Origin: Oscillospiraceae bacterium
GTDB taxonomy: Bacteria > Bacillota > Clostridia > Oscillospirales > Ruminococcaceae
Direction: 5' to 3'
DNA: 64,000 bases
Assembly (NCBI GenBank): GCA_009777155.1
Contig: WRMK01000002.1
Coordinates: forward strand, 213 to 64,212
Positions 53 to 53,081 of this stretch are shown here, piece by piece. Under the pieces are notes generated by a model. It was given only the letters and a program-made list of their open reading frames with translations. It made no database searches and had not been told where the DNA came from. The position numbers were made by a program, and so were the translations under genes. Within the stretch, counting starts at the first letter, position 1, and each line of letters starts with the position of its first letter.

Positions 53-68
53 CCCACCGCGGTCATCC

Positions 69-28265: not shown

Positions 28266-28266
28266 C

Positions 28267-28455
28267 TAATGCAGAAATAAGAATGCAGAATGCAGAAATT
28301 ATTTCTAATGCAGAAATGAGAATGCAGAATGCAGAAATGAAATCACTTTGCAATTGACAATGATTTTATTTTGTGCTATAATTAAATAACGCAGAAATAA
28401 ATAAAATTACAACTACTTGAATACTTAATTATTTCTGCATTCTGCATTCTGCATT
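28267..28455. repeat. AATGCAG-armed hairpin cassette whose loop carries a consensus promoter
   Basis: Left arms (AATGCAG)n AAAT at 28267-28339; right arm ATTTCTGCATTCTGCATTCTGCATT at 28429-28455. Confidence 0.75.
28354..28382 (+). promoter_or_regulatory. perfect consensus promoter of the GH13-PurC gene
   Basis: TTGACA-17 nt-TGcTATAAT. Confidence 0.7.
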
Positions 28456-28478: not shown

Positions 28479-30623
28479 ATGTCCTACTGGTTTGAAAACG
28501 CTGTAATCTATCACATCTACCCGCTTGGCTACTGCGGTTGCCCCAAAGATAATCCTTACTTGGAAAAGCCGGGTAAACCCGCGGGCGAAAGTCCTATTCT
28601 GAAAGTCTTAGAGCATATCCCGACTATTAAGAAACTCGGATTCAACGCCCTCTACATAGGCCCGGTGTTTGAATCCACCCGCCACGGGTACGACACCGCC
28701 GACTTCTTGAAAATCGACTCGCGACTTGGCACAAACGCAGACTTCGCGCGTGTTTGCAAGGAGTTGCACAAGAACGGTATTCGGGTAATTCTCGATGCCG
28801 TGTTCAATCATGTCGGGCGGGATTTCTTCGCCTTCAAAGACCTGCGCCAAAATCGGGGCGGCGGCAAATACGCAGGCTGGTTCCACACTCGCGGCGGCAA
28901 TTCCAATTACAACGACGGCTTTTTTTACGAGGGTTGGGAGGGGCATTACGAGTTGGTAAAGCTGAATTTGCAGAACCCCGAGGTGAAAAACCACTTGAAA
29001 GAGGCGGTGACGACTTGGTACAAGGAATACGGCATTGACGGCTTGCGGCTTGACGTCGCATACAGCTTGGACTTGGGCTTTCTGCGGGAACTCCGTAGCC
29101 ACTGCAAAAGCTTAGAACCCGACTTTTGGCTGATGGGCGAGACTTTGCATGGCGATTACAACGTATGGATGAACCCCGAAATGTGCGACAGTGTCACAAA
29201 TTATCAGTGCTACAAGGGGCTGTATTCGAGCTTCAACGACCTCAATATGTTCGAGATTGCACATTCTTTCAACGACCACTTTATGAACAAATACAGGGGC
29301 AAAAAACTCTATTGTTTTGTGGATAATCACGATGTTGGGCGAATTGCGTCGGTCTTGAAGAACCCCGCGCATTTGTTGCCGCTGTATGCTTTAATGTTCA
29401 CCATGCCGGGCATACCGGGGGTTTATTATGGCAGCGAATACGGCTTCAAAGCCGCCAAGAGCCAAGGCGACGACGCCCTGCGCCCCGAATTTTCTTTGAA
29501 GACCGTCAAGGACACTGAACTCACCCGCGCAATTGCGAAATTGGCGCATGCTCATGCAGGCTTAAAGCCGCTTTGGGACGGCGATTATCGGCAAGTCGTG
29601 TTGAATAATCAGTACTTTGCTTTTGCACGTTCGGCGGGCGGCGAGACGGTCTACACGCTGATTAATGCGAGTGCGGCGCCTGTCGGGTTTAACTTGGGCG
29701 GCGCGGGGAATTATGCTGATGTGCTGACGGGAGAAGTGTTTAATATAAGTCGCGAGGTGAAAGTTGCGGCGTGTAGTGCTATGATACTGGCAGTCACTGA
29801 TGCGCCTGTGAAAGTTTCTGCGCCGATTCAAAAGGTAGCGAAAACTCCCGAACCTGCAAAAGTTTCTGCTCCTGTGCAAGAAGTACCGAAAACTCCCGCG
29901 CCCGCAAAAGTTTCCGAACCCGCGAAAACCGCGCCTGTTCTGATTGCGCGCGGTAAGACCAAGGACGTATTCGACCTCGGCGACGGAACTTTCCTGTTCA
30001 AGTTCAAGGACAACGCCACGGTCAACGACGATGGGCAATTCGACCCGGGCGGTAACACCGTGGGCCTTACAATCGGCGGCTTGGGCGAGGCGAATTTGAA
30101 GCTTACCAAGCACCTTTTCGAGAAAATCAACGCCGCCGGATACCCCACTCACTTTGTCAGCGCGAATCTCGAGAAAGCCGAGATGACCGTTCGCCCCGCT
30201 GTGGTGTTCGGCAAGGACGGCAAGGGCTTGGAGGCCGTCTGCCGTTTCCGCGCAACCGGCAGTTTCATTCGGCGTTACGGGCAGTATGCCAAGGAGGGCG
30301 ATGCGCTGAACGGCTTGGTGGAAATTACCCTGAAAGACGACCAACGCGGCGACCCGCCGATTACCCAAGACACCCTCGTGACACTCGGCATTTTAACCAA
30401 TGACGAGTACCGAATTTTGTCGGAACTCACAAAGGGTATTTCGCACTTGTTGAAATTTATCTTCGCCGAAAAGGGCTTGGATTTGTATGATTTGAAGTTG
30501 GAATTTGGCAAGGTTGACGGTAAAATCGTGCTGATTGACGAGATTGCGGGCGGCAGTATGCGGGTCTACAGGGACGGCAAGGGGCTGACGCCGTTTGAGC
30601 TTACGGAAATAATTACACGATAA
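28479..30623 (+). CDS. GH13 alpha-amylase-family enzyme fused via a Pro/Ala/Lys linker to a SAICAR-synthetase (PurC)-like domain
   Basis: GH13 regions DAVFNHVG, GLRLDVA, MGETLH and VDNHD. C-terminal GKTKDVF...FKFKDNAT...PTHFV...GSFIRRYG...LKDDQRGDP...KLEFG...LIDEI matches the PurC layout. Confidence 0.8.
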   Translation: MSYWFENAVIYHIYPLGYCGCPKDNPYLEKPGKPAGESPILKVLEHIPTIKKLGFNALYIGPVFESTRHGYDTADFLKIDSRLGTNADFARVCKELHKNGIRVILDAVFNHVGRDFFAFKDLRQNRGGGKYAGWFHTRGGNSNYNDGFFYEGWEGHYELVKLNLQNPEVKNHLKEAVTTWYKEYGIDGLRLDVAYSLDLGFLRELRSHCKSLEPDFWLMGETLHGDYNVWMNPEMCDSVTNYQCYKGLYSSFNDLNMFEIAHSFNDHFMNKYRGKKLYCFVDNHDVGRIASVLKNPAHLLPLYALMFTMPGIPGVYYGSEYGFKAAKSQGDDALRPEFSLKTVKDTELTRAIAKLAHAHAGLKPLWDGDYRQVVLNNQYFAFARSAGGETVYTLINASAAPVGFNLGGAGNYADVLTGEVFNISREVKVAACSAMILAVTDAPVKVSAPIQKVAKTPEPAKVSAPVQEVPKTPAPAKVSEPAKTAPVLIARGKTKDVFDLGDGTFLFKFKDNATVNDDGQFDPGGNTVGLTIGGLGEANLKLTKHLFEKINAAGYPTHFVSANLEKAEMTVRPAVVFGKDGKGLEAVCRFRATGSFIRRYGQYAKEGDALNGLVEITLKDDQRGDPPITQDTLVTLGILTNDEYRILSELTKGISHLLKFIFAEKGLDLYDLKLEFGKVDGKIVLIDEIAGGSMRVYRDGKGLTPFELTEIITR

Positions 30624-30740
30624 TGCAGAAATAAAAATGCAGAATGCAGAAATGTCTTTAATTATAGGCGGTGCGCCGTGCGAGACCCGCTTAAAAATTA
30701 AATTATTTCTGCATTCTGCATTTTGCATTTTTATTTACTT
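30621..30740. repeat. AATGCAG-armed hairpin element
   Basis: aatgcagaatgcagaaat...atttctgcattctgcat arms around a loop of about 50 nt. Confidence 0.8.
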
Positions 30741-30859: not shown

Positions 30860-30945
30860 GGTTTCACCTCCTTTCGGTTAATGTAGAAATGATAATGCAG
30901 AATGCAGAAATGGCGTGGGGTTTGCGGTTGTGGGGAATTTTTGTT

Positions 30946-31740
30946 GTAGGGGCGCGCATTGCGCGTCCGTGATTTTACGCAGAACGTGGGGGTTGCGGTT
31001 GATGTTGTTTTGTCTGTAGGGGCGCGCATTGCGCGTCCGTGGTTTTATGCGCCGTGTATTTTCCTGTTGTGAAAATTTTTTGTTGTAGGGAACGGTTCTT
31101 AACCGTTCCGATGATGAAACCGTGTAAAATTTCGCAAAATATAAATCCGCGCAAACCTACGCAAATTACAGGCTTGCGGAAACTTGGCGGAACGGTTAAG
31201 AACCGTTCCCTACATAACACCGCGCTGTGTTTCGGGGGGTGCGGCGTTTCCGTGGGATTTACGGGCGAACGCAGTTCGCCCCTACGTTCATGACGTTTTT
31301 TATGTGGTTGAAAATTTTTATTGTAGGGAACGGTTCGTAACCGTTCCGAAAGTTTCAACGACCCCATAAACGGAACGGTTATGAACCGTTCCCTACATAA
31401 CACCGCGCTGTGTTTCGGGGGGCTTGCGGCGTTTCCGTGGGATTTGTGGGCGTGTGGATTGCATGTTTGTGTGGGTTTGCGGTCGTGTGGATTGCGCGTT
31501 TGTGTGGATTTGCGGGCGTGTGGGATTTGCGGGCGAACGCAGTTCGCCCCTACATTCATGACGTTTTTTATGTGGTTGAAAATTTTTGCAGTGCGGACGC
31601 GCAATGCGCGCCCCTACAATAGGTGGGATTTGCGGCGTTTCCGTGGGATTTTGCGAACGACCGGGGGCGGTCGCCCCTACAATCGGTGGGTTTTGCGGCG
31701 TTTCCGTGGGATTTACGGACGCGCAATGCGCGCCCCTACA
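30946..31740. repeat. largest REP-like hairpin cluster (about 15 units)
   Basis: GTAGGG-headed hairpins with GCGCGCA, AACGGTT, GCGAAC and ACGACCG stems in both orientations. Confidence 0.9.
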
Positions 31741-32602
31741 ATCGTCGAACCTCAATCGTCGCATGACCTATCCCCTCGTGTTCCAGTACCCCCCGCATTT
31801 CCCCCCGCACACGCGCCTCCTCCCCGGGCGGCAAATCCCCCGCGACATCCACCGTAACCGTCAGCACGTTGTATTCCTCGTCCAACGCCCAGATTCGCAG
31901 GTCGCTTATGCCGATTACGCCCTCGACGGCGTTCAGCTTGTCGGCGATTGCGCCGCGCTCGATTCCGACGGGTGCGGCTTGCAGAATTATCGGCATAATC
32001 TGCTTGATATTTTTTGCCACATTGTACAATACGAAAAATGCAATCCCGATTGAAAGCAGCGGGTCGATAATCGTCAGCCCGGTGAAGTACATCACGCCTG
32101 AGCCGACCAGCACCGCCGCCCACCCCAGCACGTCTTCGAGCAGGTGCAGTGAGACGACTCGCTCGTTAATCGAGCTTGCCTTGCGGGTTTTCAGCACGCC
32201 TATGCCGTTTGCGATTATGCCGATTATTGCAAGAAAAAACATACCCGCCGCGTTAGTTTCCTGCGGTGTAATCAAGCGCGGGATTGCCTCCGACAAAATA
32301 TACACGCTCCCGATAATCAGCACGATTGACGTAATAACCGCGCCCATCAGCGAGAATCGCCGGTAGCCGTATGTATATTTGTCGGTCGCGGCTTTTTTGG
32401 ATTTGCGCTGAAAATACCACGCGAGGGCGAGCGATAAACTGTCCCCGAAATCGTGGACTGCGTCCGACATTATCGCCACGCTGTTGGTTAAAATGCCGCC
32501 GATTATTTCGATGAGGGTGAATGATAGGTTTAGGAAAAATGCTGTGCTGATGTTGTCGGTGGGGTTACTGTGGGTGTGGTTGTGATTGTGATTGTGTGCC
32601 AT
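31736..32602 (-). CDS. czcD: cation diffusion facilitator family metal efflux transporter
   Basis: His-rich N-terminus (HNHNHNHTH), SDAVHDFGD and HLLEDVLGW motifs. Confidence 0.88.
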   Translation of the reverse strand: MAHNHNHNHTHSNPTDNISTAFFLNLSFTLIEIIGGILTNSVAIMSDAVHDFGDSLSLALAWYFQRKSKKAATDKYTYGYRRFSLMGAVITSIVLIIGSVYILSEAIPRLITPQETNAAGMFFLAIIGIIANGIGVLKTRKASSINERVVSLHLLEDVLGWAAVLVGSGVMYFTGLTIIDPLLSIGIAFFVLYNVAKNIKQIMPIILQAAPVGIERGAIADKLNAVEGVIGISDLRIWALDEEYNVLTVTVDVAGDLPPGEEARVRGEMRGVLEHEGIGHATIEVRRL

Positions 32603-32735
32603 TTTTTACCTCCGATTTTTATAATGCAGAATGCAGAATGCAAAATGCAGAAATAATTTAATTTTCAGGTGGTTTTCCAACGGATATGTACGTAATATTT
32701 TTATTTATTTCTGCATTCTGCATTATTATTTCTGC
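32603..32735. repeat. AATGCAG-armed hairpin element (55-nt conserved loop)
   Basis: Near-identical to 33455-33590. Confidence 0.85.
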
Positions 32736-33454: not shown

Positions 33455-33590
33455 TTTTTAATGCAGAATGCAGAATGCAAAATGCAGAAATAATTTAATT
33501 TTCAGGTGGTTTTCCAACGGATTTGTACATAATATTTCAATTTATTTCTGCATTCTGCATTCTGCATTCTGCATTTCTTTTTGGTTTTCA
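33455..33590. repeat. AATGCAG-armed hairpin element (55-nt conserved loop)
   Basis: (AATGCAG)n AAATAATTTAATTTTCAGGTGGTTTTCCAACGG...TTATTTCTGCATTCTGCATT. Confidence 0.85.
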
Positions 33591-40900: not shown

Positions 40901-41231
40901 TGAAGATTCCGAAGAATACGAGTTGTCCATCTTGTTTGAATGGAACGACACCAAAGACCCCGGAGAACTGCTCCTCATGCGGGTTAACGCTTACGTTTCA
41001 CTCGAAGATGAAACAGGGAATTGGATAGTGCAACCGGGCGTAAACCCCGGGCTTGACTGGAGCGAATTAAAGGCGATACTGAAATCCAACGGCGGCAAAT
41101 TCTACAGCACGTTCAGCGAGCCCGTCCCGACCGGCCTTGCCGACATGCGCGGCTTCACCGTAATCGCAATCACGCTAATCGCAGTCTCGGCGGGGCTGTT
41201 CATAAGCACTCGCCGCAGGCGAGTTAAATGA
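37917..41231 (+). CDS. 1104-aa secreted, highly acidic, aromatic- and Cys-rich cell-wall-anchored orphan protein
   Basis: Signal peptide MKKRLISLLTAFAVILSL; four N-terminal repeats of about 95 aa (W-x-W-D/E-N); CxC/CxxC-rich module; C-terminal PVPTG + TM + RRRRVK sorting signal. Confidence 0.8.
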   Translation: MKKRLISLLTAFAVILSLGGMPAIHAQSGDAYWRDYFPDTFGEADFTYGSEDYITWRWDNIDLVDDIIDFLLSEGYAEHSDRFSDGSNQTEEYTEVTKYPIIPDYDISFSIDYYDGDGNWRMAVCYYDAEYAEWFKYFTDTVGKAPDDFTFNSEGNHRWEWNNVDFRTQLHSFFLSDGLTKLTENTLTYDNVYPQKTIVTKDNDEFRLTYQVGDQDGTTVYTYIYGEGGENYWRYYFSPVADNDPSPFIYTNEDDIRWAWDNANYVAEIAWFLSMQGYYLVGKDFYETGGTDVYTDVFKDGDTFKIYYNNGNGYEDIYIYEYGRAAEWKGYFLSATYSAPDFFVYVDENNICWEWEDKNWVSDLGTFLQLQGYRQIDFGSNPFGSSYEVTQVDKYYDTFRITYHPGNDTREWFTFGWYCQPCLGGDHEDCVIDGCWCGCGGGGGGDDICDACYFGQHAWCSLYEGTSCACGCFICQPCRDEEHEVCEFKLYEARCDCWCNDNPVYFRPPYLRSGMDYYLLDIKQLLDDDDDVFKIYGVGLTLLATDIDSFDGSFKFMGLDDKDDVTFELEIDFDDCDVTALEEGMYQIEYTQDERIFSLEDWCYRRDLIINCDSGSFMVLAVWFLDEDGDFIGSPLFVEDPCGGNGGSTCLCDGIMSSFMETFATLSGDFVDLGYALYTLDFIFGYYLDWAVYMADYLFEEYAEAIVDLFGEDCIFYDPCLDLINCVQCKYLVLYFMYDDIGELSLFDYFVLMEGIAVPLFEAIEGVNAGYACEFCERFPCMCQGLMNALGAIISDVTSEPVPLVSLWGNLGSLTWLLGQWIFIPDYMTYAYGLEIATLIGGCEWDYDDVEQKMVVINNPCDPHTCIACDYYAVVDEISVWEPVPSIGWAWVLEMNADAYAKLQEFVLEPILNAIDNVNANFDDDNFSLDFIRGSFEYFISEEMFMSNFYDINPAEIEAAFTVLHEAVDSEWAVKHSEFYTDYGANNFISLIVAFEDSEEYELSILFEWNDTKDPGELLLMRVNAYVSLEDETGNWIVQPGVNPGLDWSELKAILKSNGGKFYSTFSEPVPTGLADMRGFTVIAITLIAVSAGLFISTRRRRVK

Positions 41232-41280
41232 GAATGCAGAATGCAAAATGCAGAAATAAGCGGCATACAAAGTTTATTTC

Positions 41281-41487
41281 CGACGGAGTTCGCCCCGCAC
41301 GCACAAATCCCACGGGCGGAATTCGCCCCGCACGCACAAATCCCACGGGCGAACGCAGTTCGCCCCTACAACATTAAAAATTATTAACGACATAAAAATT
41401 TTTTCAGCGTAGGGGCGGGTCACCACGGTTCGCCCGCAAGGCCCGCAAGACTTGGGCAGACGGACGCGCAATGCGCGCCCCTACATA
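41281..41487. repeat. REP-like hairpin cluster / inverted doublet
   Basis: cgggcgaacgcagttcgcccctaca - AT-rich spacer - gtaggggcg...; block repeated at 42470-42582. Confidence 0.85.
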
Positions 41488-41506
41488 GGGTTTCATGGAC
41501 TTAGTG

Positions 41507-41792
41507 GGGGCGGTGGGTCGGCATGGGGCAGGGGGTCTGTGTCTGCTCTACCTCAAAGAGCCACCAGCCCGCCACACAAGCTGTTCAGACTCCACTTTCT
41601 CGACATGAAACTTATCTCCTCACGACTTAATAAGTTTCATCTACATAAAAAGTCTGCACTCGCAAATGGGTATCTGCTACGTGATAACGGTTCGGCTCGA
41701 GAAGGTTAGACTTTATCAAGCGCAAAAGCGGGCGTGTGGCTCTTTGCGGTAGAGCAGACACAGACCCCCTGCCCCCTGCCGACCCACCGCCC
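41507..41792. mobile_element. long-arm hairpin element, copy A (about 286 nt)
   Basis: Self-complementary arms of about 60 nt around a core shared with copies at 49941-50275 and 52714-53034. Confidence 0.7.
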
Positions 41793-41844
41793 GACTACCA
41801 CCTCACATATTCACTTAATTAAATAGTAGAAAGGATTTAGAAAC

Positions 41845-42387
41845 ATGGCAGAATTAAAAGGCACAAAAACCGAGCAAAACTTAATGGAGGCGTTCGCGGG
41901 GGAGAGCCAAGCCCGCAACAAGTACACATACTACGCCTCAAAGGCTAAGAAAGAAGGCTATGAGCAGATTGCGGCGTTGTTCGAGGAGACCGCGCTGAAC
42001 GAAAAAGAGCACGCGAAAATCTGGTTCAAGTTACTTTCGGGCGGCGAAATACCCACAACTGCCGAGAACTTAAAAGCCGCCGCGTCGGGCGAGAACGCCG
42101 AGTGGACCGACATGTATAAGCGCATGGCACAGGAGGCCCGCGACGAGGGCTTTGCCGACATTGCGGCACTGTTCGACAAGGTCGGCGGCATCGAAAAAGA
42201 ACACGAGGAACGCTATCTGAAGCTACTCGCGAACCTCGAAAATGGCGAAGTCTTCACCAAAAAAGAAAAGGTCTACTGGATTTGCCGCAACTGCGGATAC
42301 ATCGTAAACAACGAGAGCGCGTTTGAAAAATGCGCCGTCTGCACCCACCCGAAAGCTTATTTTGAAATGCGGGCGACGAATTATTAA
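41845..42387 (+). CDS. rbr: rubrerythrin
   Basis: ExxH di-iron motifs and a C-terminal CxxC...CxxC rubredoxin-like domain. Confidence 0.92.
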   Translation: MAELKGTKTEQNLMEAFAGESQARNKYTYYASKAKKEGYEQIAALFEETALNEKEHAKIWFKLLSGGEIPTTAENLKAAASGENAEWTDMYKRMAQEARDEGFADIAALFDKVGGIEKEHEERYLKLLANLENGEVFTKKEKVYWICRNCGYIVNNESAFEKCAVCTHPKAYFEMRATNY

Positions 42388-42409
42388 TTGCATTGTTGCA
42401 ATGTGCAAT

Positions 42410-42582
42410 GTAGGGGCGGGCATTGCCCGCCCGAAATTTTTATGCGGCGTAATGCGATTGCGTGCATTGCACCGCACGCACACACATAAATCCCACGGGC
42501 GAACGCAGTTCGCCCCTACAACATTAAAAATTATTAACGACAGTAAAATTTTTTCAGCGTAGGGGCGAACTGTGTTCGCCCG
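42410..42582. repeat. REP-like hairpin cluster
   Basis: GTAGGGGCGGGCATTGCCCGCCCG plus an inverted GCGAAC doublet. Confidence 0.85.
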
Positions 42583-42597
42583 TAAGGCACGCAGGAC

Positions 42598-42652
42598 TTG
42601 GGCGTGCGATTCCTTTGCAGTGGCGCAGACATAGACCCCCACCCCCGCCTAC
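42598..42652. repeat. solo arm of the long-arm element family
   Basis: ggcgtgcgattcctttgc...gcgcagacatagaccccc resembles the right arms of copies B and C. Confidence 0.5.
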
Positions 42653-42691
42653 AGGTACTTCTAATTTATTTTCTCGCCCACAGGTATTTCT

Positions 42692-42740
42692 CATTATTCA
42701 CTATTCACTATTCACTATTCACTATTCATTATTCACTCAC
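42692..42740 (-). repeat. heptanucleotide array (7 units) overlapping the stop codon of the glucan-synthase-like gene
   Basis: Sense strand reads GGT GAG TGA ATA ATG AAT AGT GAA TAG TGA ATA GTG... Confidence 0.8.
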
Positions 42741-45700
42741 CCCCCCCAAAAACCTCCCCAAGCACCCAAAAATACCATCCCGCGCTCCCAGTATAAATAC
42801 TCCACCCCCCGCGCCCATAAGCGCGGCTGTTAGTATAAATATCCGCCGCCATATAATACGGCTCGGTCTTGTACTCCCCGCCCCTGCCGAAAGGCGCGAG
42901 AAGTCGCAGAAGCTCGGCGGCTTTTGCCTTATTACAAGCCTTATTATCGTTGGGACAATTTTCGCGGGAACTCCCAGCGGTTTTTGCTTTATAACAAGTC
43001 TTGTTGTCGTGAGGACAAGTTTCGCGAGAACTCTCGGCGGCTTTAAGATAAGCCATCGCCAACCAAACCGCCGCATGAGTATACTGCCCCCCATTCTCGC
43101 GAACCCCCTCGGGGTAACTCTCGACATACCCCGGCTCCTGCCACGACCTACCCCGCGCAAACGGCGGCGTGAACAGCTTTACCAACCTATTCCGCGTATC
43201 GCATAACTGCTCCTCCGCGCTCCTCAAAGCCGCGGATTTTCTGTGTTCATCGGGCATTTCGGCAAGCGTAGCGAACGCTTGCGGCAGTAGGTCAATTTTG
43301 CAACGGTCGTTTTTCGCCGCGCCCATTTCCTTGCCATTGTCGTAAAACGCCCGCAAATAATGCCCGCCGTCCCACGCCGAGGCGTCAATCGCCGCGGTAA
43401 TTTCGGCACTGCGCCGCTTCAAGTCCGCGCTGTACTCGGTATCGCCCATCATCATCGCAGTCTTGGCAAAATTCTTGCACAACATTACATAAAACATCGA
43501 CAGCCAAACGCTCTCGCCGCGCCCCTTCAAGCCGACATTGTTATACCCGTCGCACCAGTCCCCGCCGCCCATTAACAACAGCCCGTGCGAGCCCTTCGCG
43601 TACGCCTTGTCAATGGCGCGTTTGCAGTGCAAATACACGCTCTCTTTGAAGTCGGTAATGCCGACCTCGATATACTTTTCTTTCTCACCGTCAGCTAATA
43701 ACGGCCCGTCTGCGTAATGAATTTTGGTCTCAAGTATATCGTAATCTTTCGTGAAATCAACGTACTCCGCCGTCACAAACGGCAACCACAGCAAGTCGTC
43801 CGAATACCGCGTGCGAACGCCTTTGTTGTGCGTCTCCATATCGTGCCACCAGTGCAGAACGTCACCCTCAACAAACTGCGCCGTACACGCCCGCAAAATC
43901 TGCCGCTTGGCAATTTCCGGCCGCAAAAGCATTGCCGCAAGGCAGTCCTGCAACTGGTCTCGATAGCCGTACGCCCCGCTGTTCTGGTAGAAACCGGTCC
44001 GCGCCCACAGCCGCCCGCCAATCACCTGCCACGGCAACCAATAGCTGTACAGCGCGTTCAGCCGCTCATCGCCCGTATCAATAGGCACTGCCTCAATCAG
44101 CGGCGCAGAGCGTTTATTCCTCAACGCCTCTTTCATGGTCAGCGGCCTTTTGGTATTCTTTGTGAACGCCAAAATGAACCTAATCTTATCGGTGTGTTTC
44201 GGGGGCAACTCGATTTTAATTACCACTGCGCCGATTATATCATGCGCGGGATTTACCGACTTCTCCGCGTTCCAGTCACCCTCAAAAAACGCCTGCCTAC
44301 CCGTCATGAAACTGCAATCCGAATTATCGGAATACATCATCATCGCCCCCGAAAAGACACCGTTCGCAGGGTTCTTGAAAATCAAAGTATTGTCTTTAAC
44401 TTGCAGTGTAGGAATAATCAGCCGCGCATTTTCCCGAGTAACCCCCAAAACAGGCTCGACATAATAAGCCACCTCAAAGCATTTCGGCTTTTTACTGCGG
44501 TTTTCCAACTCCAAAACAATCTCCTTACCCATGCCCTTTTCAAAGACATTCACGGTGGTTTTTGCATGAAGATTTCCGACAATTCCATGATAAACTGCAC
44601 GGTTCGGCGCAAATGTCGCCCTGCTCCCGTCAATCAAGTCGTAAATAGCCCTGCCCTCGAATTTCAACAGCAACATCTCCCCCTTATTATCGGCGCGCAG
44701 GTCGTTGTTCCACGGGCTGAGTTTATTCTCGCGGCTGTTCAACGCCCACGAGAACCCTAAAGCTCTATCCGACAGCAAAGTCCCGAATCGGCTCGACGCC
44801 AAAATATTACACCACGGCAAATCGGGGCTGTTCTCGATAATAAATTTCTCGCCCTCGAATCGGTTTTCAAGCTTGCCGGATTCGGGTTTACCGCACGGCA
44901 GTATCGGCAGAAATTCACGCGATTTAACCTTAGCCTTACTCTTAGGCAACAGCTCGTCCGACCGCTGTGTGTAACAAGCGGCGGCACGAATTAAATTAAT
45001 CAGCGCGGGGTTAGTCGAAGTCCCGCATACCACGAAAATTTCCGTCCCGATTTCCTTTTGCAACGACCTTACTAAATTTATCTGCGCCTCATTCTCGCAC
45101 AACATTACAAGGTCAAATTCCACCCCGCAAAGCCACAACGCCTTTTTCATCTCGACAATAGCATCCGCGCCGCTCGCCGACACCACGCCGCCTTTTATAC
45201 CATCCTTAAACTCAAACAAGACAATCGGGTAATCGCCCGAAATGCCAAGCTCCCACAAGGCGTTCAACCCCAAGTTATTTTTCATGACCGCCTTTTTATT
45301 CTCGCTCTGAACAGCGGAAGTTTTCGCTACAGGCGCGTAGACTACAGCAGGCAAAATCCGCGCCGCAAACCTGCCATACATCGTCTCTCGGACGAGCGGC
45401 GAAATAATCTCCTCGCACGGCTTTTCGGCCTCACCACGCCGTATATCGGCGGCAAGCGCAAGCACTTCACGCTCACTTGCGCCGTAGCAAATCATCAAAT
45501 CAGTATCGCTTTTACCGTAAGCATCAAGCGGAAAATCGACCTTGATAAACACGCACGGACAAGGTACAGAAGTCGTATTAGTTTCAAGGGCGGCGGCTTT
45601 TTCAAGCGACGAAATAATCCCGCCGTTGCGGCTTATAACTTCCTCGCGATTGAAGCTGAAAGTAAATTCGCGCTTATCCCTAAAGCCGATTGCCATTACT

Positions 45701-48700
45701 GTTTCGGCATCACTCGTGCGCTCCTTGCGTTTGGCGATAATCAGGCAATTTTCTGCATCATAGTGCAGTTTCAAAAACAAATCCATGAACGCGGGGTGCG
45801 CCGCAATATCCCTGAACCGCGCCAACGCAGGTTCAAGGTAGACCGCCAAATTCAACTGCCGCTTTTTGTTACCGAGATTCTCGGCGGCAAAGCGGCGAAT
45901 CTCAACCGCCTTATCGCAGTGCAAATAAGTCTGCAACCCCAACCGCAAATTCCTGCAATTGAGATAATGCTCGGTGCTGTTCTGGAAGAAGACTGCGGAT
46001 TTTTCGACCTTGTCCGACTTATCGGATTTTTCGGGAGCAACTACACACGGGTGATTCAAAAACGGCATAATATTCTCGCCCTCAACAAACCCAAACAGCG
46101 TACCTCGCGGATTCAACAAGTCCACGGTTTTATAAAACCCGCTCTTTTTACCATACAGGCTCATGCTTAGTCCTATATTGCTCGTCAAGACTGTGAGCAA
46201 TCCGTTCGACAGCGGGTTTACCTGTATGTCGGCACAGGAAAATTCGGTGAACTCGGTGGAATTCATGCGGTAGGACTGTTCCTCTTGCCATTCGGGAGTT
46301 GCCAAAACAGGCTCACCCGCCATAATTTTTTCCTCAAGCAATTCCTCCGCACGTTTCATGTCGGGGTCGCTTAGGAAAAGCTTCTGCAACTTGCCGCCAT
46401 GCAACGCATTGCAGACCCCCGCCATCGACATACCGACGTGATGCGCCATATGGCTTTTCACCACCGCATACCCCGAACCGACCCTGTGCTTGGTGAAATC
46501 CGCCGCCTCATAAAAGCCGTATTTAGAGTGGCTCACGCCGAGCTTTTCAAGTTTCACCAAATTATTATAAGATGCAATCGGGTCAATTCCGAGCGACAAG
46601 AAACTCGAATAAGGCGAGATTACCCGCTCCTTGTTCAACCCGCCTTTCAAGCCCACGGTCTGGACACCGTGCGCCTTGTACTGGTAATTCAACGCCTCAT
46701 CAAACGCATAATACCCGCTCTCGGACATGCCGAACGGCAGGCCGGTCTCCCGCCCGCGTTTCTGCTGGCAATGCAGGGAAAACCGCAACGCCTCATACTC
46801 CATACTGCCCTCCTTTGAACCCAACAGCAACTCCGGCATATAGTACTCGAACATCGTCCCCGTCCACGCTACAGGCGCGGCGTACGACCCGCTCCTGCCC
46901 ATCACCCGCCCCAAACTCCGCCAATGCTTTTTGTCGGCCTGCCCCGTGGCGATTGCATAGTATGACAACATTCGCGCCTCGGACATAATCAGGTCGTAAC
47001 TATGCCGCGACAAGCTCTGACTATCAAGGTCAAAGCCGATACTGAACAGGTTCCGCGCCTTGTTGAAGAACGGCTTTAAGTTCGTTTCGGCGGCAATTTT
47101 TTCAATACGCGCTATCAATTCCTCGCTTGAATTACACTCGCGCAAGGCCTGTTTCACCGCGATTAAACAGCAGACAAAATTCCCGCTGTCAACCGAAGAC
47201 ACAAACGGCGAAATAACTTTCAACTCGTGAGTTTCATACCAATTCATCAAGTTTCCATGCCACTTTTCGAGCCGCTCAACAGTCCCCACAGTCTTTTCAA
47301 CCCGCGACACAAACTCGTCTTTAGTGATAAACCCAAACGTCCGCGCCGCCGCACACGAAAGCAGATACATGCCGATGTTAGTCGGCGAAGTCCGCGCCGA
47401 AACGCGGTATACAGGGCTGTACTGGACATTATCGGGCGGCAGAAAATTATGCTCGGCTGTGACATAATCGGTGTAAAACGCCCACATCTTCCGCGCATTT
47501 TGAAGCAATTCTGCACGCATAGCCTTTGTGAATTTGGGGGTAGTCTTGCCGCTCGTCCTGTCGATATACAGCGTAAGCGGCAAAAGGCACATGAATATTA
47601 CGCCGAGCAAAACCACAAGCATGTTCCCATTCACTAACGCCGCCATTAACAAAGCCGCCGAAACAATTTCTGCAAGCAAAATATGCGAAACTCCGCTTTT
47701 CAAACCCTCTAAGGACGAGGCGGTGTTCCAATCTAACAAGTGCTTTTTGGTAATCAGCATACGCCACAAAGTCCGCACAAGCGCGTCCGCGCTAATCAGC
47801 GCGTTTTTCACAGCGAACATGATTTCCATTAAACACTGGCGTAACAATTGCTTTGTCTGCGAGATTACAGGCGAGTAGAACCTGCGATAAAACGCGAAAC
47901 GCCGCCCGCGTATCACCGACGGAAAGAACCCCATTAAAAACGGCATGGTAATCGCGAGCAACCCGACTAAAGCAAGCAGGTCAAGTCGTGCGGGATTCGG
48001 CCGCACAGCTGCAATTGCAAAGCACAGGAAAATAAACAGCGGCGTAACCGCCCGCCTTACGTTGTCAAGCAGTTTCCAGCGGGTGAGCGGCGAGAAGTTT
48101 CTGCGGAAAATATAGCGGAAATTCTGCAAGTCCCCGCGAAGCCAACGGTGCTGGCGTTTGAAGTAGGCCGCCGAGGTATCGGGGAAGCTATCATTAAATT
48201 CAATATCCCCCGCATAAACCACCCCGAGGCAACCGCCCTCAAGTATATCGTGCGAAAGAATCCGCTCCTCCCTGAATCCACTGCACTTGTCAAGGAGCAT
48301 ATCCACGTTAATCAGCCCCTTACCGGTGAAAATCCCCTCACCAAAGCAATCCTGATACATCTCCCCCGAAAAGCAGTCGTAACTCGACGCCCCCGCACAG
48401 CCGCCGTTGCCCGCCATTGCCCGCGAGAACCCGGTTTTGAGGTAGCTGTCAAGAGTAGTGGTAATTCGGGGGGCGATTATGCCCTTGTGCTTATGGAGCG
48501 GGTGCAGGGCAATCCCGACAAGCTCCGAAACGCTGTCCATGAGCGGGACTGTGTCATAGTCGAGTGCCATTATATACGCAATATCATGCAAGGCCGAGCG
48601 GCTCCCGTAAACAGCGCGGAATCCGCATTTGCGTGCCTCGCTAACGCCGCCCCGAAGCAATTCAGCAAACGCCAAAATCGCCCCCCGCTTACGCTCGTGC

Positions 48701-49905
48701 CCCTGCCACGCGTTCTGAGTCTTGCAAAACTTCCGCTCCCTTATGAGTATTACAAAGTCGCCCGCCCCCGAAAACGTCTTCTCTGCAATTGCCAAAAGCC
48801 GCTCGTCATCGGGATTTTCAGCGTTATCGGCGGGTTTAAGGTCACATAGCAGGGCGAATTTTATGTTGTCTGAATTATTTTTAAGTCGTGCCTCCCGTAA
48901 TTTTCCAAACCCGCTGACAACGTCCTTTTCGGAGGCAATCAGGGTCGAGATTACGCAGATAGTCTTGGCGCGGGGGGGAACTTTGCCCTTGAGGGCAAGC
49001 CGCGGAATCAGCCCGTCGCGCTTGACGGATTTTATGGCAATATAATCCACAAGCGGCTTGAGTATAGCAAGGCAGGGTACGAACAACAACGCCGCCCAAG
49101 CCCAGCTCGAAACATCCGCGTAACACCACGCCAGTACCGCCGTAAGCAGGGCGGTAGGCAGAAACAACGCCGTCAAGTACGCCCGCACCCGCACAAACGG
49201 GAACACGCGGCGGTAGTCTTTCGCGATGATTTCACCTACATGCAGGTTCTCCGCCCTGCTCCGATTCATGTACTCGTTGGACAACCGCGCCTCATCAATC
49301 CCGGTCGCAATCGCAATCTCAGAGGTTTTGCGGCGATAATCGGCGCGGGTCTCCTCGGTCAATTTGGGATACAAAGTATCCGCCGAATACAACAGTTCCA
49401 CAGGGTTCAACGCCGCGCAAATCCGCTCAGGCTCTAAGTCGGTCAAGGCACTGAGTTTCTCCCCGAAGTTATCGCCATTTCCGACACCATTAATCGCATC
49501 GGAAATCACGCAGTACTTCGCCTGCCATATCAGGCTATCAATATCCATCGACGTCAGCGGCTTGACCGCCGCCAATCGCGACACCACATTCACAATCATC
49601 TCGGCGGAAATCTCCCGCATTGAGCCTACAACCCCGCCCAAGACGGGGGTTTTAACGCCGTTTGCAGAAAGGTACATATTTATATAAAAACCTTTGTGGG
49701 CGCGGATAAGCATGCCGAGTTCCTTCTCAAGCATGCGTTTCTCGCCCGGCAAAGGCGCGGCCTCGCGGGATTTATTCGCCGATTGCGCCGATTGCGCTAA
49801 TTTGCGCCGCAACTTCCTAAGCGGCGAGTACAACCCACTCACAGGCAGTACCTTCCACTGCATAGCGGCAATCTCGGTAATTTTTTCTGTGTTATCTTTT
49901 AACAA
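42733..49905 (-). CDS. cyclic beta-1,2-glucan synthase-like protein (GT84 + membrane region + GH94-like phosphorylase domain)
   Basis: 2390 aa; ALDYDTVP GT motif, multiple TM helices, C-terminal GGDWCDGYN...GGQYTHAAVW GH94-type motifs; TTG start behind AAGGAG. Confidence 0.8.
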   Translation of the reverse strand: MLKDNTEKITEIAAMQWKVLPVSGLYSPLRKLRRKLAQSAQSANKSREAAPLPGEKRMLEKELGMLIRAHKGFYINMYLSANGVKTPVLGGVVGSMREISAEMIVNVVSRLAAVKPLTSMDIDSLIWQAKYCVISDAINGVGNGDNFGEKLSALTDLEPERICAALNPVELLYSADTLYPKLTEETRADYRRKTSEIAIATGIDEARLSNEYMNRSRAENLHVGEIIAKDYRRVFPFVRVRAYLTALFLPTALLTAVLAWCYADVSSWAWAALLFVPCLAILKPLVDYIAIKSVKRDGLIPRLALKGKVPPRAKTICVISTLIASEKDVVSGFGKLREARLKNNSDNIKFALLCDLKPADNAENPDDERLLAIAEKTFSGAGDFVILIRERKFCKTQNAWQGHERKRGAILAFAELLRGGVSEARKCGFRAVYGSRSALHDIAYIMALDYDTVPLMDSVSELVGIALHPLHKHKGIIAPRITTTLDSYLKTGFSRAMAGNGGCAGASSYDCFSGEMYQDCFGEGIFTGKGLINVDMLLDKCSGFREERILSHDILEGGCLGVVYAGDIEFNDSFPDTSAAYFKRQHRWLRGDLQNFRYIFRRNFSPLTRWKLLDNVRRAVTPLFIFLCFAIAAVRPNPARLDLLALVGLLAITMPFLMGFFPSVIRGRRFAFYRRFYSPVISQTKQLLRQCLMEIMFAVKNALISADALVRTLWRMLITKKHLLDWNTASSLEGLKSGVSHILLAEIVSAALLMAALVNGNMLVVLLGVIFMCLLPLTLYIDRTSGKTTPKFTKAMRAELLQNARKMWAFYTDYVTAEHNFLPPDNVQYSPVYRVSARTSPTNIGMYLLSCAAARTFGFITKDEFVSRVEKTVGTVERLEKWHGNLMNWYETHELKVISPFVSSVDSGNFVCCLIAVKQALRECNSSEELIARIEKIAAETNLKPFFNKARNLFSIGFDLDSQSLSRHSYDLIMSEARMLSYYAIATGQADKKHWRSLGRVMGRSGSYAAPVAWTGTMFEYYMPELLLGSKEGSMEYEALRFSLHCQQKRGRETGLPFGMSESGYYAFDEALNYQYKAHGVQTVGLKGGLNKERVISPYSSFLSLGIDPIASYNNLVKLEKLGVSHSKYGFYEAADFTKHRVGSGYAVVKSHMAHHVGMSMAGVCNALHGGKLQKLFLSDPDMKRAEELLEEKIMAGEPVLATPEWQEEQSYRMNSTEFTEFSCADIQVNPLSNGLLTVLTSNIGLSMSLYGKKSGFYKTVDLLNPRGTLFGFVEGENIMPFLNHPCVVAPEKSDKSDKVEKSAVFFQNSTEHYLNCRNLRLGLQTYLHCDKAVEIRRFAAENLGNKKRQLNLAVYLEPALARFRDIAAHPAFMDLFLKLHYDAENCLIIAKRKERTSDAETVMAIGFRDKREFTFSFNREEVISRNGGIISSLEKAAALETNTTSVPCPCVFIKVDFPLDAYGKSDTDLMICYGASEREVLALAADIRRGEAEKPCEEIISPLVRETMYGRFAARILPAVVYAPVAKTSAVQSENKKAVMKNNLGLNALWELGISGDYPIVLFEFKDGIKGGVVSASGADAIVEMKKALWLCGVEFDLVMLCENEAQINLVRSLQKEIGTEIFVVCGTSTNPALINLIRAAACYTQRSDELLPKSKAKVKSREFLPILPCGKPESGKLENRFEGEKFIIENSPDLPWCNILASSRFGTLLSDRALGFSWALNSRENKLSPWNNDLRADNKGEMLLLKFEGRAIYDLIDGSRATFAPNRAVYHGIVGNLHAKTTVNVFEKGMGKEIVLELENRSKKPKCFEVAYYVEPVLGVTRENARLIIPTLQVKDNTLIFKNPANGVFSGAMMMYSDNSDCSFMTGRQAFFEGDWNAEKSVNPAHDIIGAVVIKIELPPKHTDKIRFILAFTKNTKRPLTMKEALRNKRSAPLIEAVPIDTGDERLNALYSYWLPWQVIGGRLWARTGFYQNSGAYGYRDQLQDCLAAMLLRPEIAKRQILRACTAQFVEGDVLHWWHDMETHNKGVRTRYSDDLLWLPFVTAEYVDFTKDYDILETKIHYADGPLLADGEKEKYIEVGITDFKESVYLHCKRAIDKAYAKGSHGLLLMGGGDWCDGYNNVGLKGRGESVWLSMFYVMLCKNFAKTAMMMGDTEYSADLKRRSAEITAAIDASAWDGGHYLRAFYDNGKEMGAAKNDRCKIDLLPQAFATLAEMPDEHRKSAALRSAEEQLCDTRNRLVKLFTPPFARGRSWQEPGYVESYPEGVRENGGQYTHAAVWLAMAYLKAAESSRETCPHDNKTCYKAKTAGSSRENCPNDNKACNKAKAAELLRLLAPFGRGGEYKTEPYYMAADIYTNSRAYGRGGWSIYTGSAGWYFWVLGEVFGGGE

Positions 49906-49940
49906 AGCAAGTCTCCTTGAGCAATATTATCTTATGAACC

Positions 49941-50275
49941 CACTACATACAGCAAAATTTTTGCAAATGTGAAGTGGCAGTCGGGGCAGAGGGGGGTAGT
50001 AGGGGTCTATGTCTGCGCCGCCGCTTTGAAACGCACGCCCGCCGCACAAACCGTTCAATCCCCGCAACATCGACAGCGAGTTTTCCCCTTGGCGACCTAT
50101 GGGTTCGCTATACATTAAAAGTCCGCCCCCATAAGGGGTTCTTCCATCTACAAAGTCTTTGGCACGAGAGAGTTAAGTTTTAGCAAGTGTAAACGCGGGT
50201 TCGTGCAGTTTCAAAGCGGCGGCGCAGACATAGACCCCTACTACCCCCCTCTGCCCCCCCCTCAAGTCCATGAAG
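49941..50275. mobile_element. long-arm hairpin element, copy B (outer flanks inverted relative to the core)
   Basis: See findings. Confidence 0.7.
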
Positions 50276-50350
50276 TCCCCTATATTAACTATATTCTACC
50301 CATTATTTGGATTTAATTTCAAAAAAATTAAAATTTTTTTCAATAAAGGG

Positions 50351-50379
50351 TTGAAATAGTGTTAAAAATGTTGTATAAT
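50351..50379 (+). promoter_or_regulatory. sigma-A-type promoter ahead of the 216-aa gene and the atp operon
   Basis: TTGAAA-17 nt-TATAAT. Confidence 0.6.
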
Positions 50380-50415
50380 AACCTTATGTGATTTATCGAA
50401 AGGACTAAAAAATTC

Positions 50416-51066
50416 ATGACCGGTAGTAAATCTGCACTCGTGGCGACTGTTGTGGTGTTTATTTTGGCTGTTGCGGCGGCCGTCTTTGCGTTTTGGTACA
50501 TCGGGGGGGACTCGCAGTCGGGCGGCGACATCGCGAGTATACCCGACGACGATGTTTTTGAACCCACGGCTGACGAGCGGGCCGAAATGACCGACGCCGC
50601 CGATAGGTTAATCAAAAATAATCACAGAGTGGTACAATTATTCCTCACCCAAGGCCTCCCCGCCCTGCCCGAACCCTACGGCAACCGCCCCGAAAACGAT
50701 ATTTATTATGTAGACAGCGACGAGTATTTAACCCTCAACGATATATCCACCTTGGTTTTCGATACCTTCTCGGGGGCAGAGGCCGAGCGGATTATGGACG
50801 GCACCACCAATTTCGGCAACCCGTTCTTCCGTGGCGCGGTCTATTACGATAAGGACGGCAGTCTCGGCATACACATGAACTTTCAACCGTATGAGGACTA
50901 CCCCGTCAACTGGACCAACCCCTCGTATCAGTTAAGCCCGGTGTCCGCAGATGAATGTCTGTTGACCCTCGAGTTGTCAATCGACAACCAACGGGCGACT
51001 TTCGTCCGTACTATGTCCAAGCGCGGCAACCACTGGGAGCTCGACCGCATTATCCTCAATGAATAA
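50416..51066 (+). CDS. membrane-anchored hypothetical protein (216 aa)
   Basis: N-terminal TM helix; overlaps the atpZ start by 8 nt. Confidence 0.6.
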   Translation: MTGSKSALVATVVVFILAVAAAVFAFWYIGGDSQSGGDIASIPDDDVFEPTADERAEMTDAADRLIKNNHRVVQLFLTQGLPALPEPYGNRPENDIYYVDSDEYLTLNDISTLVFDTFSGAEAERIMDGTTNFGNPFFRGAVYYDKDGSLGIHMNFQPYEDYPVNWTNPSYQLSPVSADECLLTLELSIDNQRATFVRTMSKRGNHWELDRIILNE

Positions 51067-51361
51067 ACGCGACAACCCGATGTCGGCGTACATTGTGGCA
51101 AGTCACATTGCATTCGTTGTGATTACGCCGCTCCTGCTGTTCATAGGCGGCGGGGCGTGGCTCTGCGACAAGTTGAGCCTGCCCGACTGGACTAAACTGC
51201 TGATGGTACTTGTCGGCGTGGCGGTGATGATATTGTCGCTGATTTCGTACTTGATGAGACTGATTAAGATGTACGACGGCGATTCAAAGGGTGTTGAAAA
51301 ACAAAAACCTGCCTTTAAGGGCGAGAGTGACTACTACTATGAAAACGATATCGAACCGTAG
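51059..51361 (+). CDS. atpZ: AtpZ/ATPase_gene1-like small membrane protein
   Basis: Two TM helices with a GGGAWLCDKLSLPDW motif; sits at the head of the atp operon. Confidence 0.6.
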   Translation: MNKRDNPMSAYIVASHIAFVVITPLLLFIGGGAWLCDKLSLPDWTKLLMVLVGVAVMILSLISYLMRLIKMYDGDSKGVEKQKPAFKGESDYYYENDIEP

Positions 51362-51761
51362 AGTTAAATCCGAAGCGGAAATAATCGCACTTGAAGAACT
51401 GAAACAGATGACCCCCTTCTTCCTGATTGCAAACGGCGCAGTGCTACTAATCAGCGGAATCCTCGGCTTATTTATAAAGGTAGACTGGGGCGTTTTCACG
51501 GGGTTGCTTATCGGCAACATAGCGGCGGCGGTAAACTTCTACCTAATCGGCTTCACCACAGGCCGCGCAATCAGGCGCAGGGACACAAAGCGGGCGCGGA
51601 GCTACTTCGCATTCAGCTACGGCATGCGTATGCTGGGGATTTTCGGAGTGTTTGCAGTATTGATTACGTTCGGGCTAATCAACCCGATAACGGCGATAGC
51701 CCCACTGCTCTACCCGAGTGTGTATTATAAGATTCGGGCGGTGTTTAATAAGTCGGTTTGA
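51339..51761 (+). CDS. atpI: ATP synthase protein I
   Basis: Four hydrophobic helices, position before atpB; start trimmed to ATG 51339. Confidence 0.6.
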   Translation: MKTISNRRVKSEAEIIALEELKQMTPFFLIANGAVLLISGILGLFIKVDWGVFTGLLIGNIAAAVNFYLIGFTTGRAIRRRDTKRARSYFAFSYGMRMLGIFGVFAVLITFGLINPITAIAPLLYPSVYYKIRAVFNKSV

Positions 51762-51791
51762 CAACATTTAACAATGTCCGTTTAATTTATA

Positions 51792-51882
51792 CGGGCGAAC
51801 GCAGTTCGCCCCTACATGGCGCAAGTCTACTGTGTTGTGTAAAATTCCTGAGCGTAGGGGCGGGATTTCCACGGTCCGCCCG
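51792..51882. repeat. REP-like hairpins
   Basis: cgggcgaacgcagttcgcccctaca; gtaggggcgggatttccacggtccgcccg. Confidence 0.8.
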
Positions 51883-51918
51883 CACCTCAAAGTCGCTCGA
51901 CCGTGAAAGGTATTAACC

Positions 51919-52680
51919 ATGAGAAAATTTACAACGATTATCACCCTCTGCCTCGTGCTGACCTTGGCGGCGTGTGGGTTTGAACCCACAGGCGTCGTTT
52001 CGGAGGGTGGCGAGACCCTGCCGCTCCCCGAACCTCGTGACGTCTCGGACGCTCCCGAAACTCCCGATGAACCCATTGAACCCGACGAACCCATTGAACC
52101 CAACGAACCCGATGAACCCACTGAACCCGCAACCACAGGTGCAGTCGCAATCGCAACATACGAGCGCGGTATCCTAACCGACACATCCTTTGAAAGCGAC
52201 TACCTCGGGCTTAGATTCACCCTGCCCCCCGGATTCGTAATGGCGACACCGGAGGAAATCCTCGACATGATGGATTTGGGCGCGGCCGCCTTCGATTTAG
52301 ACCAAGATATAGTGGATTACGCGGCACTCACAGCGACTTACGACATGGTGGCGTTCAGCCCCGCCGGCTTCCCGAACGTCATTGTCCTAACCGAGCTTAT
52401 GCCGATTAGCGACATAACGGTAGAGCAGTATTTTGACAACGTCAAGGTTATGTTTGCATCAACCGGCCCGGATTTCCGGTTTGGCGACTTAGGAACGATA
52501 GAAGTCGCAGGCGAGACCTACACAAAACTCCCCGCAAGCCTTGAAATGCTCGGCGAAACGGTTTTGCAGGATTATATCATGAGGAAACATGGCGACAGAA
52601 TGGTCGGATTCATACTTTCATACACAGACGAGACCGCAGACGAAGCCGAATTATTAATGGCGGCGTTTGAGAAATATTAA
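51919..52680 (+). CDS. lipoprotein with a PExP-rich linker, inserted between atpI and atpB
   Basis: Lipobox LTLAAC; (PDEPIE)n low-complexity linker. Confidence 0.7.
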   Translation: MRKFTTIITLCLVLTLAACGFEPTGVVSEGGETLPLPEPRDVSDAPETPDEPIEPDEPIEPNEPDEPTEPATTGAVAIATYERGILTDTSFESDYLGLRFTLPPGFVMATPEEILDMMDLGAAAFDLDQDIVDYAALTATYDMVAFSPAGFPNVIVLTELMPISDITVEQYFDNVKVMFASTGPDFRFGDLGTIEVAGETYTKLPASLEMLGETVLQDYIMRKHGDRMVGFILSYTDETADEAELLMAAFEKY

Positions 52681-52713
52681 CAATAGACGATTGCGAAACT
52701 CGCCGTTTAGAGG

Positions 52714-53034
52714 TCATGGACTTGAGTGGGGGCAGAGGGGGGTAGTAGGGGTACGGCGGCACAAGGAATTGCCGGCCCGCCACACAAACTCATCTAATTC
52801 CACTTCCTCGATTGCGACCTTACAAGTTCACGACTTGACAAGTTTCATCTATTTGAAAAGTCTGCACTCGCAAATAGGCTCGTGCTACGTGATAACGGTT
52901 CGGCTCGAGAAGGTTAAGCTCTATCAAGCGTAGAACGCGGGCGTGCGATTCCTTGTGCCGCCGTACCCCTACTACCCCCCTCTGCCCCGACTGCCACCTC
53001 ACATTTGCAAAAATTTTGCGGTATGTAGTGAGTT
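52714..53034. mobile_element. long-arm hairpin element, copy C
   Basis: Arms ggggcagaggggggtagtaggggtacggcggcacaagg / ccttgtgccgccgtacccctactacccccctctgcccc; core about 90% identical to copy A. Confidence 0.7.
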
Positions 53035-53081
53035 TCGCAATCTCTTAAAATATTAAAAATTAAAGGAGGATTCCTATTCGC

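Follow-up and report, generated by a model that had tools for sequence, protein, structure and literature searches.

A non-coding repeat family of about 320 bp with mirrored arm changes in an uncultured Oscillospiraceae-like gut bacterium

How can the arms of a long hairpin differ from one copy of a repeat to the next and still pair with each other in every copy? The question is raised by a 64,000-nt stretch of DNA, here called the window, from an Oscillospiraceae bacterium (contig WRMK01000002.1, positions 213 to 64,212). An earlier note on the window described full and partial copies of an element in which long self-complementary arms enclose a conserved core, and suggested a structured RNA or a DNA cruciform under selection, or gene conversion from arm to arm. 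The elements form a non-coding repeat family of about 320 bp, not described before, in an uncultured Oscillospiraceae-like gut bacterium. They are most likely selfish DNA hairpin repeats rather than structured RNA genes, and on balance the family probably belongs with the non-autonomous, non-coding fold-back DNA repeats of the MITE, REPIN and ERIC kind.

Read from 5′ to 3′, an element consists of End-1 (about 20 nt), a G-rich arm (45-65 nt), a core (162-166 nt), the complementary C-rich arm and End-2 (16-54 nt). The three full copies are present where they had been placed, at 41507-41792 (A), 49941-50275 (B) and 52714-53034 (C), and with the end motifs included their spans extend further, to 41486-41808, 49937-50282 and 52708-53042, respectively. 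Near-perfect pairing of arms of 50-60 nt had been claimed, and it was confirmed over 65 nt in A (94%), 50 nt in B (100%) and 56 nt in C (93%). Within these copies the arms are thus 93-100% complementary at a spacing of 155-175 nt, and the folding energy of a full copy is -161 to -179 kcal/mol (z = -12 to -17 against dinucleotide shuffles). The two partial copies, reported at 1-52 and 42598-42652, are also real; each is a solo right arm (1-60 and 42597-42650). The features are as follows.

41486 to 41507, plus strand: End-1 of A (TAGGGTTTCATGGACTTAGTGG), common to C, B (as the reverse complement) and G.
41508 to 41572, plus strand: left arm of A, G-rich, 65 nt, 94% complementary to 41728-41792.
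41568 to 41732, plus strand: core of A, type I, 165 nt, from CCCGCCACACAA to GCGGG, 81-83% identical to the C, E, F and G cores.
41728 to 41792, plus strand: right arm of A, C-rich, inverted-repeat pair with 41508-41572.
41793 to 41808, plus strand: End-2 of A, short form (GACTACCACCTCACAT), with three matches in the window, each at an element end.
49937 to 49982, minus strand: End-2 of B, long form, as the reverse complement on the left, flipped relative to A and C.
49983 to 50042, plus strand: left arm of B; 49983-50032 and 50208-50257 are 100% complementary over 50 nt, and the extension has bulges.
50038 to 50199, plus strand: core of B, type II, 162 nt, oriented as the A and C cores, 78% identical to D and 64-67% to type I.
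50195 to 50257, plus strand: right arm of B, placed by arm alignment.
50258 to 50282, minus strand: End-1 of B, as the reverse complement on the right, with an exact match at 50261-50273 on the minus strand.
52708 to 52726, plus strand: End-1 of C (TAGAGGTCATGGACTTGAG), a motif match.
52725 to 52780, plus strand: left arm of C, 56 nt, 93% complementary to 52937-52992.
52776 to 52941, plus strand: core of C, type I, 166 nt, in the atp operon between a 253-aa ORF and atpB.
52937 to 52992, plus strand: right arm of C, inverted-repeat pair with 52725-52780.
52989 to 53042, plus strand: End-2 of C, long form (GACTGCCACCTCACATTTGCAAAAATTTTGCGGTATGTAGTGAGTTTCGCAATC), common to B (as the reverse complement) and F.
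1 to 60, plus strand: solo or truncated right arm, a variant of the A type, cut by the window start.
42597 to 42650, plus strand: solo right arm with the final core bases (GGGCGTGCGATTCCTTTGCAGTGGCGCAGACATAGACCCCCACCCC), without a left arm and without the core.

The ends are not copies of each other. End-1 has the consensus TAG(A)GG..TCATGGACTTGAG. It opens, some 20 nt away from the stem, with GTAG in copy G, ATAG in copies A and B and TTAG in copy C. End-2 is CGACTRCCACCTCACAT, lengthened by TTGCAAAAATTTTGCKGTATGTAGTGRGTT in B, C and F, and in its long form it holds a GTAG in direct, not mirrored, orientation. The two are different motifs with weak complementarity, and the long arms are subterminal. 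Within the window, both motifs are present only when joined to elements, which makes them part of the element. Neither a direct repeat nor a common target was found beside End-1 and End-2 in A-E and G, the right boundary being uncertain, and the sequences flanking End-1 gave no consensus.

Seven copies of the family were gathered, of which five are full and two are partial, and they lie at loci unrelated to one another: A, B and C in the window, D and E on the related metagenome contig L021, and F and G on contig L036. Extrapolated roughly from their density here, a complete genome would be expected to hold 100-300 copies. D and E were found by a metagenome scan, in which L021 was the one genuine contig among 17 loci. 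L036 (ENA ERZ27257348, contig k141_4085590) belongs to the window's own organism and was reached by an exact-protein look-up. It is a chimeric short-read contig: it is identical to the window over 50287-52849, then shows a divergent patch of 70 nt within the C core, and departs from the window locus within the C right arm to continue into new DNA. Copy G, taken from this chimeric contig, has C-like arms, a core 94% identical to that of C, and End-1 on the right; F has a partial core, a new arm variant and End-2. The repeats break or misjoin short-read assemblies. Two other contigs start within them, L010 in the left arm of A and L011 in the C core.

Elsewhere the family was not encountered. 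Scanning a genome collection with a two-block core pattern gave eight matches, all due to chance, with the similarity confined to the pattern itself. Viral contigs scanned with core patterns yielded no element, and none of the nine loci from a viral-contig scan with a REP pattern carried one. BLAST of the core against plasmid and phage collections was also without a match, and exact-protein look-ups with four window genes led to no other strain. The family has thus been seen solely in the window organism and in that of L021, which also have two REP families in common. Relatives were found through AtpB and through the cysteine-desulfurase-like gene of L021, at protein identities of 69-85%. By its AtpB homologues the host falls among Oscillospiraceae-like Clostridia. 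The closest homologue is 69% identical (L029), and the syntenic GH94-atp region of this nearest relative found contains neither B nor C, nor the REPs. Six loci of relatives reached through the L021 gene (L031-L035 and L046), where the neighboring gene is 77-85% identical, have no element and no REPs.

When all left arms are aligned with the reverse complements of the right arms, they prove to be variants of one ancestral arm (...GGGGGTCTATGTCTGCGCCACCGCAAAGGAC...). The inner arms do differ between copies, as had been stated, but as homologous variants and not as unrelated sequences. The five full copies were compared over the inner 31 bp of the stem. Of all cells, 99.3% are paired, and 16 of the 31 pairs have changed on both sides, with none changed on one side only; no shuffle among 500 scored as high. 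Pairwise arm differences are mirrored in 76 of 80 cases, and the remaining four all come from a single mismatch in A. G-U intermediates are absent from this stem in the five copies, and the rare arm mismatches are T.C and G.G, never G.T. In the outer G-rich arm, the copies are set apart by indels of 10-20 nt that are found in the left and the right arm alike, and it is implausible that such indels arose by independent compensatory mutation. Identity between copies is 52-87% for the arms and 64-94% for the cores. As these ranges are similar, the arms cannot be called young: they have diverged and are still paired. One spot behaves otherwise. A 2x2 internal loop beside the core persists in A, C and E, with CCAG or CCGG on the left facing CGTG on the right. 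Having escaped homogenization, it points to some selection on structure or sequence there.

The covariation of the arms is thus real and very strong, and of the explanations first offered for it, its character points to the DNA-level one, while the structured RNA is not supported by the tests. We regard as very unlikely an RNA gene or cis-regulatory leader whose closing helix is under selection for RNA pairing and whose core is functional, even though extremely stable predicted folds and two-sided arm covariation are what it would predict. Thirty-one pairs in five copies without a G-U pair or a one-sided change, mismatches that are not wobbles, and mirrored indels of several nucleotides do not fit such selection. 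A perfect RNA duplex of 50-65 bp would, moreover, be a substrate of RNase III rather than a stable scaffold.

The core bears on the same question. In all copies it runs from CCCGCCRCACAA to GCGGG, and the shared blocks noticed at the outset were confirmed. They are conserved as linear sequence (e.g., AAAAGTCYGC, GGSWCGAGARRGTTA and CAAGYG.A.A..GCGGG) and are invariant across the two organisms, which could be expected of a functional RNA. The helices of the core are not kept, however. Its covariation in RNAalifold was -0.16 with five copies and +0.7 with seven, values that leave a secondary structure unsupported, and the predicted core helix CTTTCTCGA/TCGAGAAGG is disrupted in B. Neither wobble intermediates in the stem nor conserved helices in the core, the marks of a structured RNA, were thus found. 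A conserved central hairpin presenting a CGACTT motif was dropped as a candidate, being significant in A only. The proposal that the elements might match HEARO/omega RNA, 6S, retron msr or another known RNA family found no backing: they were unmatched in Rfam at the gathering score over the whole window, and at E<=10 over 41400-53200, where the sole weak matches fell on other repeats. The core has no conserved promoter or terminator pattern. A promoter inside the element was also considered, and the cores had no consistent match to one. A coding function was rejected, as ORFs traverse the A and C cores in different frames and none is conserved.

The cores fall into two types. Type I comprises A, C, E, F and G (81-94% identical) and type II comprises B and D (78%); identity between the types is 64-73%, and D is a mosaic of both. 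The A and C cores had been put at about 90% identity, which proved to be 81%, whereas the greater divergence of B was borne out (64-67%) and reflects the second subtype. D and E have their arms in common and different core types, and C and E have similar cores and different arms. This conflict between the relationships of the arms and those of the cores indicates recombination.

The copies also differ in orientation. In A and C, End-1 lies 5′ of the core. In B, each end stands in the other's place, in reverse complement, around a core that is oriented as in A and C, and 49937-50006 of B is the reverse complement of 52965-53034 of C at 96% identity. The B core is therefore inverted relative to its shell. 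The same is probably true of G, judging from the placement of its ends.

An alternative account of both the arms and the flip is nested insertion, in which a unit made of the core and the innermost stem inserts site-specifically at the apex of pre-existing palindromes. The arms would then be the two halves of the target, hence complementary and specific to each copy, and the flip would be insertion in the opposite orientation. We consider this unlikely, if somewhat less so than a structured RNA. It would account for the constant sequence GGGG|T...A|CCCC where the outer G-run shell meets the inner unit, and for the mixing of shells and insides: B, C, F and G have one outer shell with differing insides, and D and E have a common shell with different core types. 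Comparable behavior is known in some insertion sequences that target REP palindromes. A further precedent is that of REP dimers within long palindromes for which neither A. variabilis nor H. neapolitanus showed an empty form (PMC3733652). Against nested insertion, neither an empty shell nor a core-less pair of End-1 and End-2 occurs in about 84 kb from the two carrier organisms, and no gene or match resembling an insertion sequence was found. The inner-arm substitutions (TCTATGTCTGCGCC... variants) are mirrored and homologous, so that many perfect variants of one palindrome would have been required as targets. An empty shell would itself be a perfect palindrome of 70-130 bp without a spacer, and such palindromes are unstable in bacteria.

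The rubrerythrin gene begins 37 nt downstream of A, if the distance is taken between the last base of End-2 (41808) and the start codon (41845); measured from where the right arm ends, it is 53 nt. B separates the atp operon from the divergent GH94 gene, and the best match to a promoter for the downstream operon (50351-50379) lies 3′ of it. C is within the atp operon, after the 253-aa ORF and before atpB. That all full copies sit just upstream of genes is correct for the window and is not a rule: D lies between two convergent genes and G faces the 3′ end of a gene, while F precedes one. There is no consistent relation of the copies to genes. The core has the same direction as the next downstream gene in A, B, C and F, which would suit an RNA; D and G, not being upstream of genes, would not. 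The 253-aa ORF beside C (51919-52680, between atpI and atpB) has no Pfam match and is called as 241 aa in L036. In L029 it is absent, and the gap between atpI and atpB is 18 nt.

The favored reading, a fold-back DNA repeat, accounts for these observations with processes acting on DNA. Mirrored indels, the lack of wobble intermediates and flipped cores together point to templated copying from arm to arm at the DNA level, and with arms only about 160 bp apart the interaction would take place within one DNA molecule. What maintains the pairing of the arms may be template switching at the hairpin during replication (quasipalindrome correction), gene conversion of one inverted repeat by the other, or the two together; quasipalindrome template switching is an established mutational mechanism (PMC7202029). 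A substitution or indel in one arm would be either erased or transferred to the other arm. In this way the arms could drift between copies and remain Watson-Crick perfect within each copy. The same process, when it leads to a crossover between the arms, would invert the core relative to End-1 and End-2, as in B and probably G.

Dispersal to unrelated loci suggests that the element is mobile. Its spread is presumably the work of an enzyme whose gene lies elsewhere and whose substrates are the hairpin and the ends. The leading candidate would be a REP-associated (HUH/Y1) transposase, favored because the genome is packed with GTAG-headed REPs; REPINs are units mobilized by RAYT transposases (PMC3337134). 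A Pfam search of the 64-kb window showed no transposase, RAYT or recombinase gene, and neither the window nor the fetched loci nor the collections of plasmids, phages and viruses contained an autonomous partner or a parent insertion sequence with the same ends. As the core is kept in sequence blocks and not as a fold, it is more likely to serve the element as a platform for protein recognition than as an RNA. A miniature IS110-type element with a bridge RNA was also considered as an idea; the window has no recombinase.

A more elaborate form of DNA-level copying is that the element replicates through its hairpin. A single-stranded intermediate would fold back so that one arm primes or templates the other, regenerating the arms and producing flip and flop cores, in a manner that might be likened to hairpin transfer at the terminal repeats of parvoviruses. 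We hold this to be quite improbable. It would explain the mirrored substitutions and indels and the presence of both core orientations in close relatives (C vs. G), and the asymmetric ends with no visible target duplication fit HUH-type single-strand transposition better than cut-and-paste, in a host where GTAG-headed REPs are abundant. However, ordinary recombination of inverted repeats that lie close together is enough to explain these data, with no new mechanism needed, and HUH, Rep or RAYT genes were not seen in the DNA examined. The further thought that the family could be the counterpart, on a bacterial chromosome, of rolling-hairpin terminal repeats, its conserved 165-nt core serving a dedicated enzyme from another locus as recognition platform or guide, seems to us a long shot. 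Were the core indeed the handle of such an enzyme, it would give entry to a new mobilization system that recognizes hairpins.

How does the fold-back repeat compare with known ones? Like REPINs and other REP dimers, the elements are non-coding, dispersed and mostly intergenic (PMC3337134; PMC3733652), and their two inverted arms pair into a single long hairpin, enclosing a spacer that may be conserved. Conservation of the spacer is on record for REP dimers, as is their insertion within long palindromes (PMC3733652). The host is full of GTAG-headed REPs, and the TAG[A]GG head of End-1 resembles the local GTAGGG head. The differences are those of scale and symmetry. The arms here are 45-65 bp, four to five times the length of REP stems (5-13 bp), and the spacer is 162-166 nt and conserved in two organisms, as against 20-100 nt in REP dimers. 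The ends are asymmetric, the second GTAG being direct and not inverted, and the arms are unlike all four REP families of the window, in which no RAYT was seen.

MITEs and similar repeats (Correia/nemis, ERIC, bcr1 and BOX) share other properties with the family: a length of 150-350 bp, multiple copies, non-autonomy, long hairpins and a location beside or inside operons. MITEs fold into long stem-loops, and bcr1 shows compensatory base changes (PMC3184786). The present copies are multiple and dispersed and have no internal transposase, the ORFs of the cores being in no common frame. Classical MITEs, on the other hand, have conserved terminal inverted repeats and a flanking target-site duplication, whereas here the very ends are asymmetric, no terminal inverted repeat is found there, and no duplication is visible. 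The arms, moreover, vary at least as much as the core, and the core occurs in both orientations. Since the family departs from the classical definition of a MITE and would be an atypical REPIN, we regard it as a new family among the fold-back or palindromic interspersed repeats of bacteria, taken as a broad class.

Two other systems deserve comparison. As in invertons, inverted repeats enclose a segment that occurs in either orientation relative to its surroundings, one in B and probably G, the other in A, C and F. Here, however, the two orientations are at different loci and not at one, the window has no invertase, and the core gave no promoter match. Since the arms far exceed recombinase sites in length, general recombination or template switching would suffice for inversion. 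As in the attC sites of integrons, there is an imperfect palindrome conserved more in structure than in sequence, with an unpaired feature kept near the foot of the stem, here the 2x2 internal loop beside the core. The attC sites are 57-141 bp long with a variable central part. In the present family the central part is conserved, and there are neither cassette arrays nor an integrase in the window.

The elements are a clean natural case of very strong "covariation" along a long helix, for which interaction of inverted repeats in DNA is a better explanation than selection on RNA. They are thus a confounder for RNA discovery by covariation, recognizable by mirrored indels, the lack of wobble intermediates and flipped cores. 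C, in addition, places a hairpin of about -160 kcal/mol within the atp operon, where it could influence transcription or mRNA processing. Finally, a Clostridia-class (Oscillospiraceae-like) gut bacterium is seen to bear a dense load of REP-like and fold-back repeats; the terms Firmicutes and Clostridi- are absent from the text of a REP survey (PMC3733652).

The REP-like palindromes of the window, which are unusual for a genome of the class Clostridia, make up at least four families, all headed by (T)GTAGGG, with at least 70 units in 64 kb. By regular-expression count there are 18 units of GTAGGGGCGCGCATTGCGCG, 14 of GTAGGGAACGGTTnnnAACCGTTCC, 24 of GTAGGGGCGAACnnnnGTTCGCCC and 16 of GTAGGGACGACCGnnnnCGGTCGTCC. 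They are often in inverted doublets or BIME-like mosaics, and clusters lie at about 2190-2460, 7420-7710, 11450-11920, 13430-13590, 25840-26300, 30910-31750, 41320-41490 and 42400-42590. The first type occurs beyond the window's host, as an unrelated contig classed as viral (L037/L044, IMGVR_UViG_2820537337_000003; 46% G+C) has 14 exact matches to its pattern, in inverted pairs. One REP may have been caught at an insertion site. The End-2 tail of C (53018-53042) reads TATGTAGTGAGTTTCGCAATC, and in the flank of G (2740-2790 of L036) the same tail is interrupted after GTAG by a REP body, TATGTAG[GGGCGATTCACCACGGTTCGCCCGT]GAGTTTCGCAATC. The pair looks like the empty and the occupied form of a REP insertion site, right at GTAG.

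Repeats of other kinds are also present. An A+T rich family built of AATGCAGAA units (e.g., TTAATGCAGAATGCAGAATGCAAAATGCAGAAATAA) is found at gene ends, at 28266-28340, 30620-30655, 30878-30913, 32621-32656, 33458-33493 and 41224-41259, sometimes in inverted pairing with 30676-30729. A heptamer, TATTCAC, is repeated in about six tandem units at 42695-42740, just 3′ of the solo arm and next to the point where the GH94 gene ends. Longer tandem repeats, of 195-198 nt, in frame and 69-77% identical, occur at 14884-15575 in a gene for a BspA-type leucine-rich-repeat protein and at 16834-17229 in a gene for an SPFH/Band 7 protein. At 5079-6394, amid genes of hexuronate catabolism, an ORF for an HNH endonuclease adjoins one for a TdeIII-like type II restriction endonuclease, and the two may constitute a small mobile restriction island.
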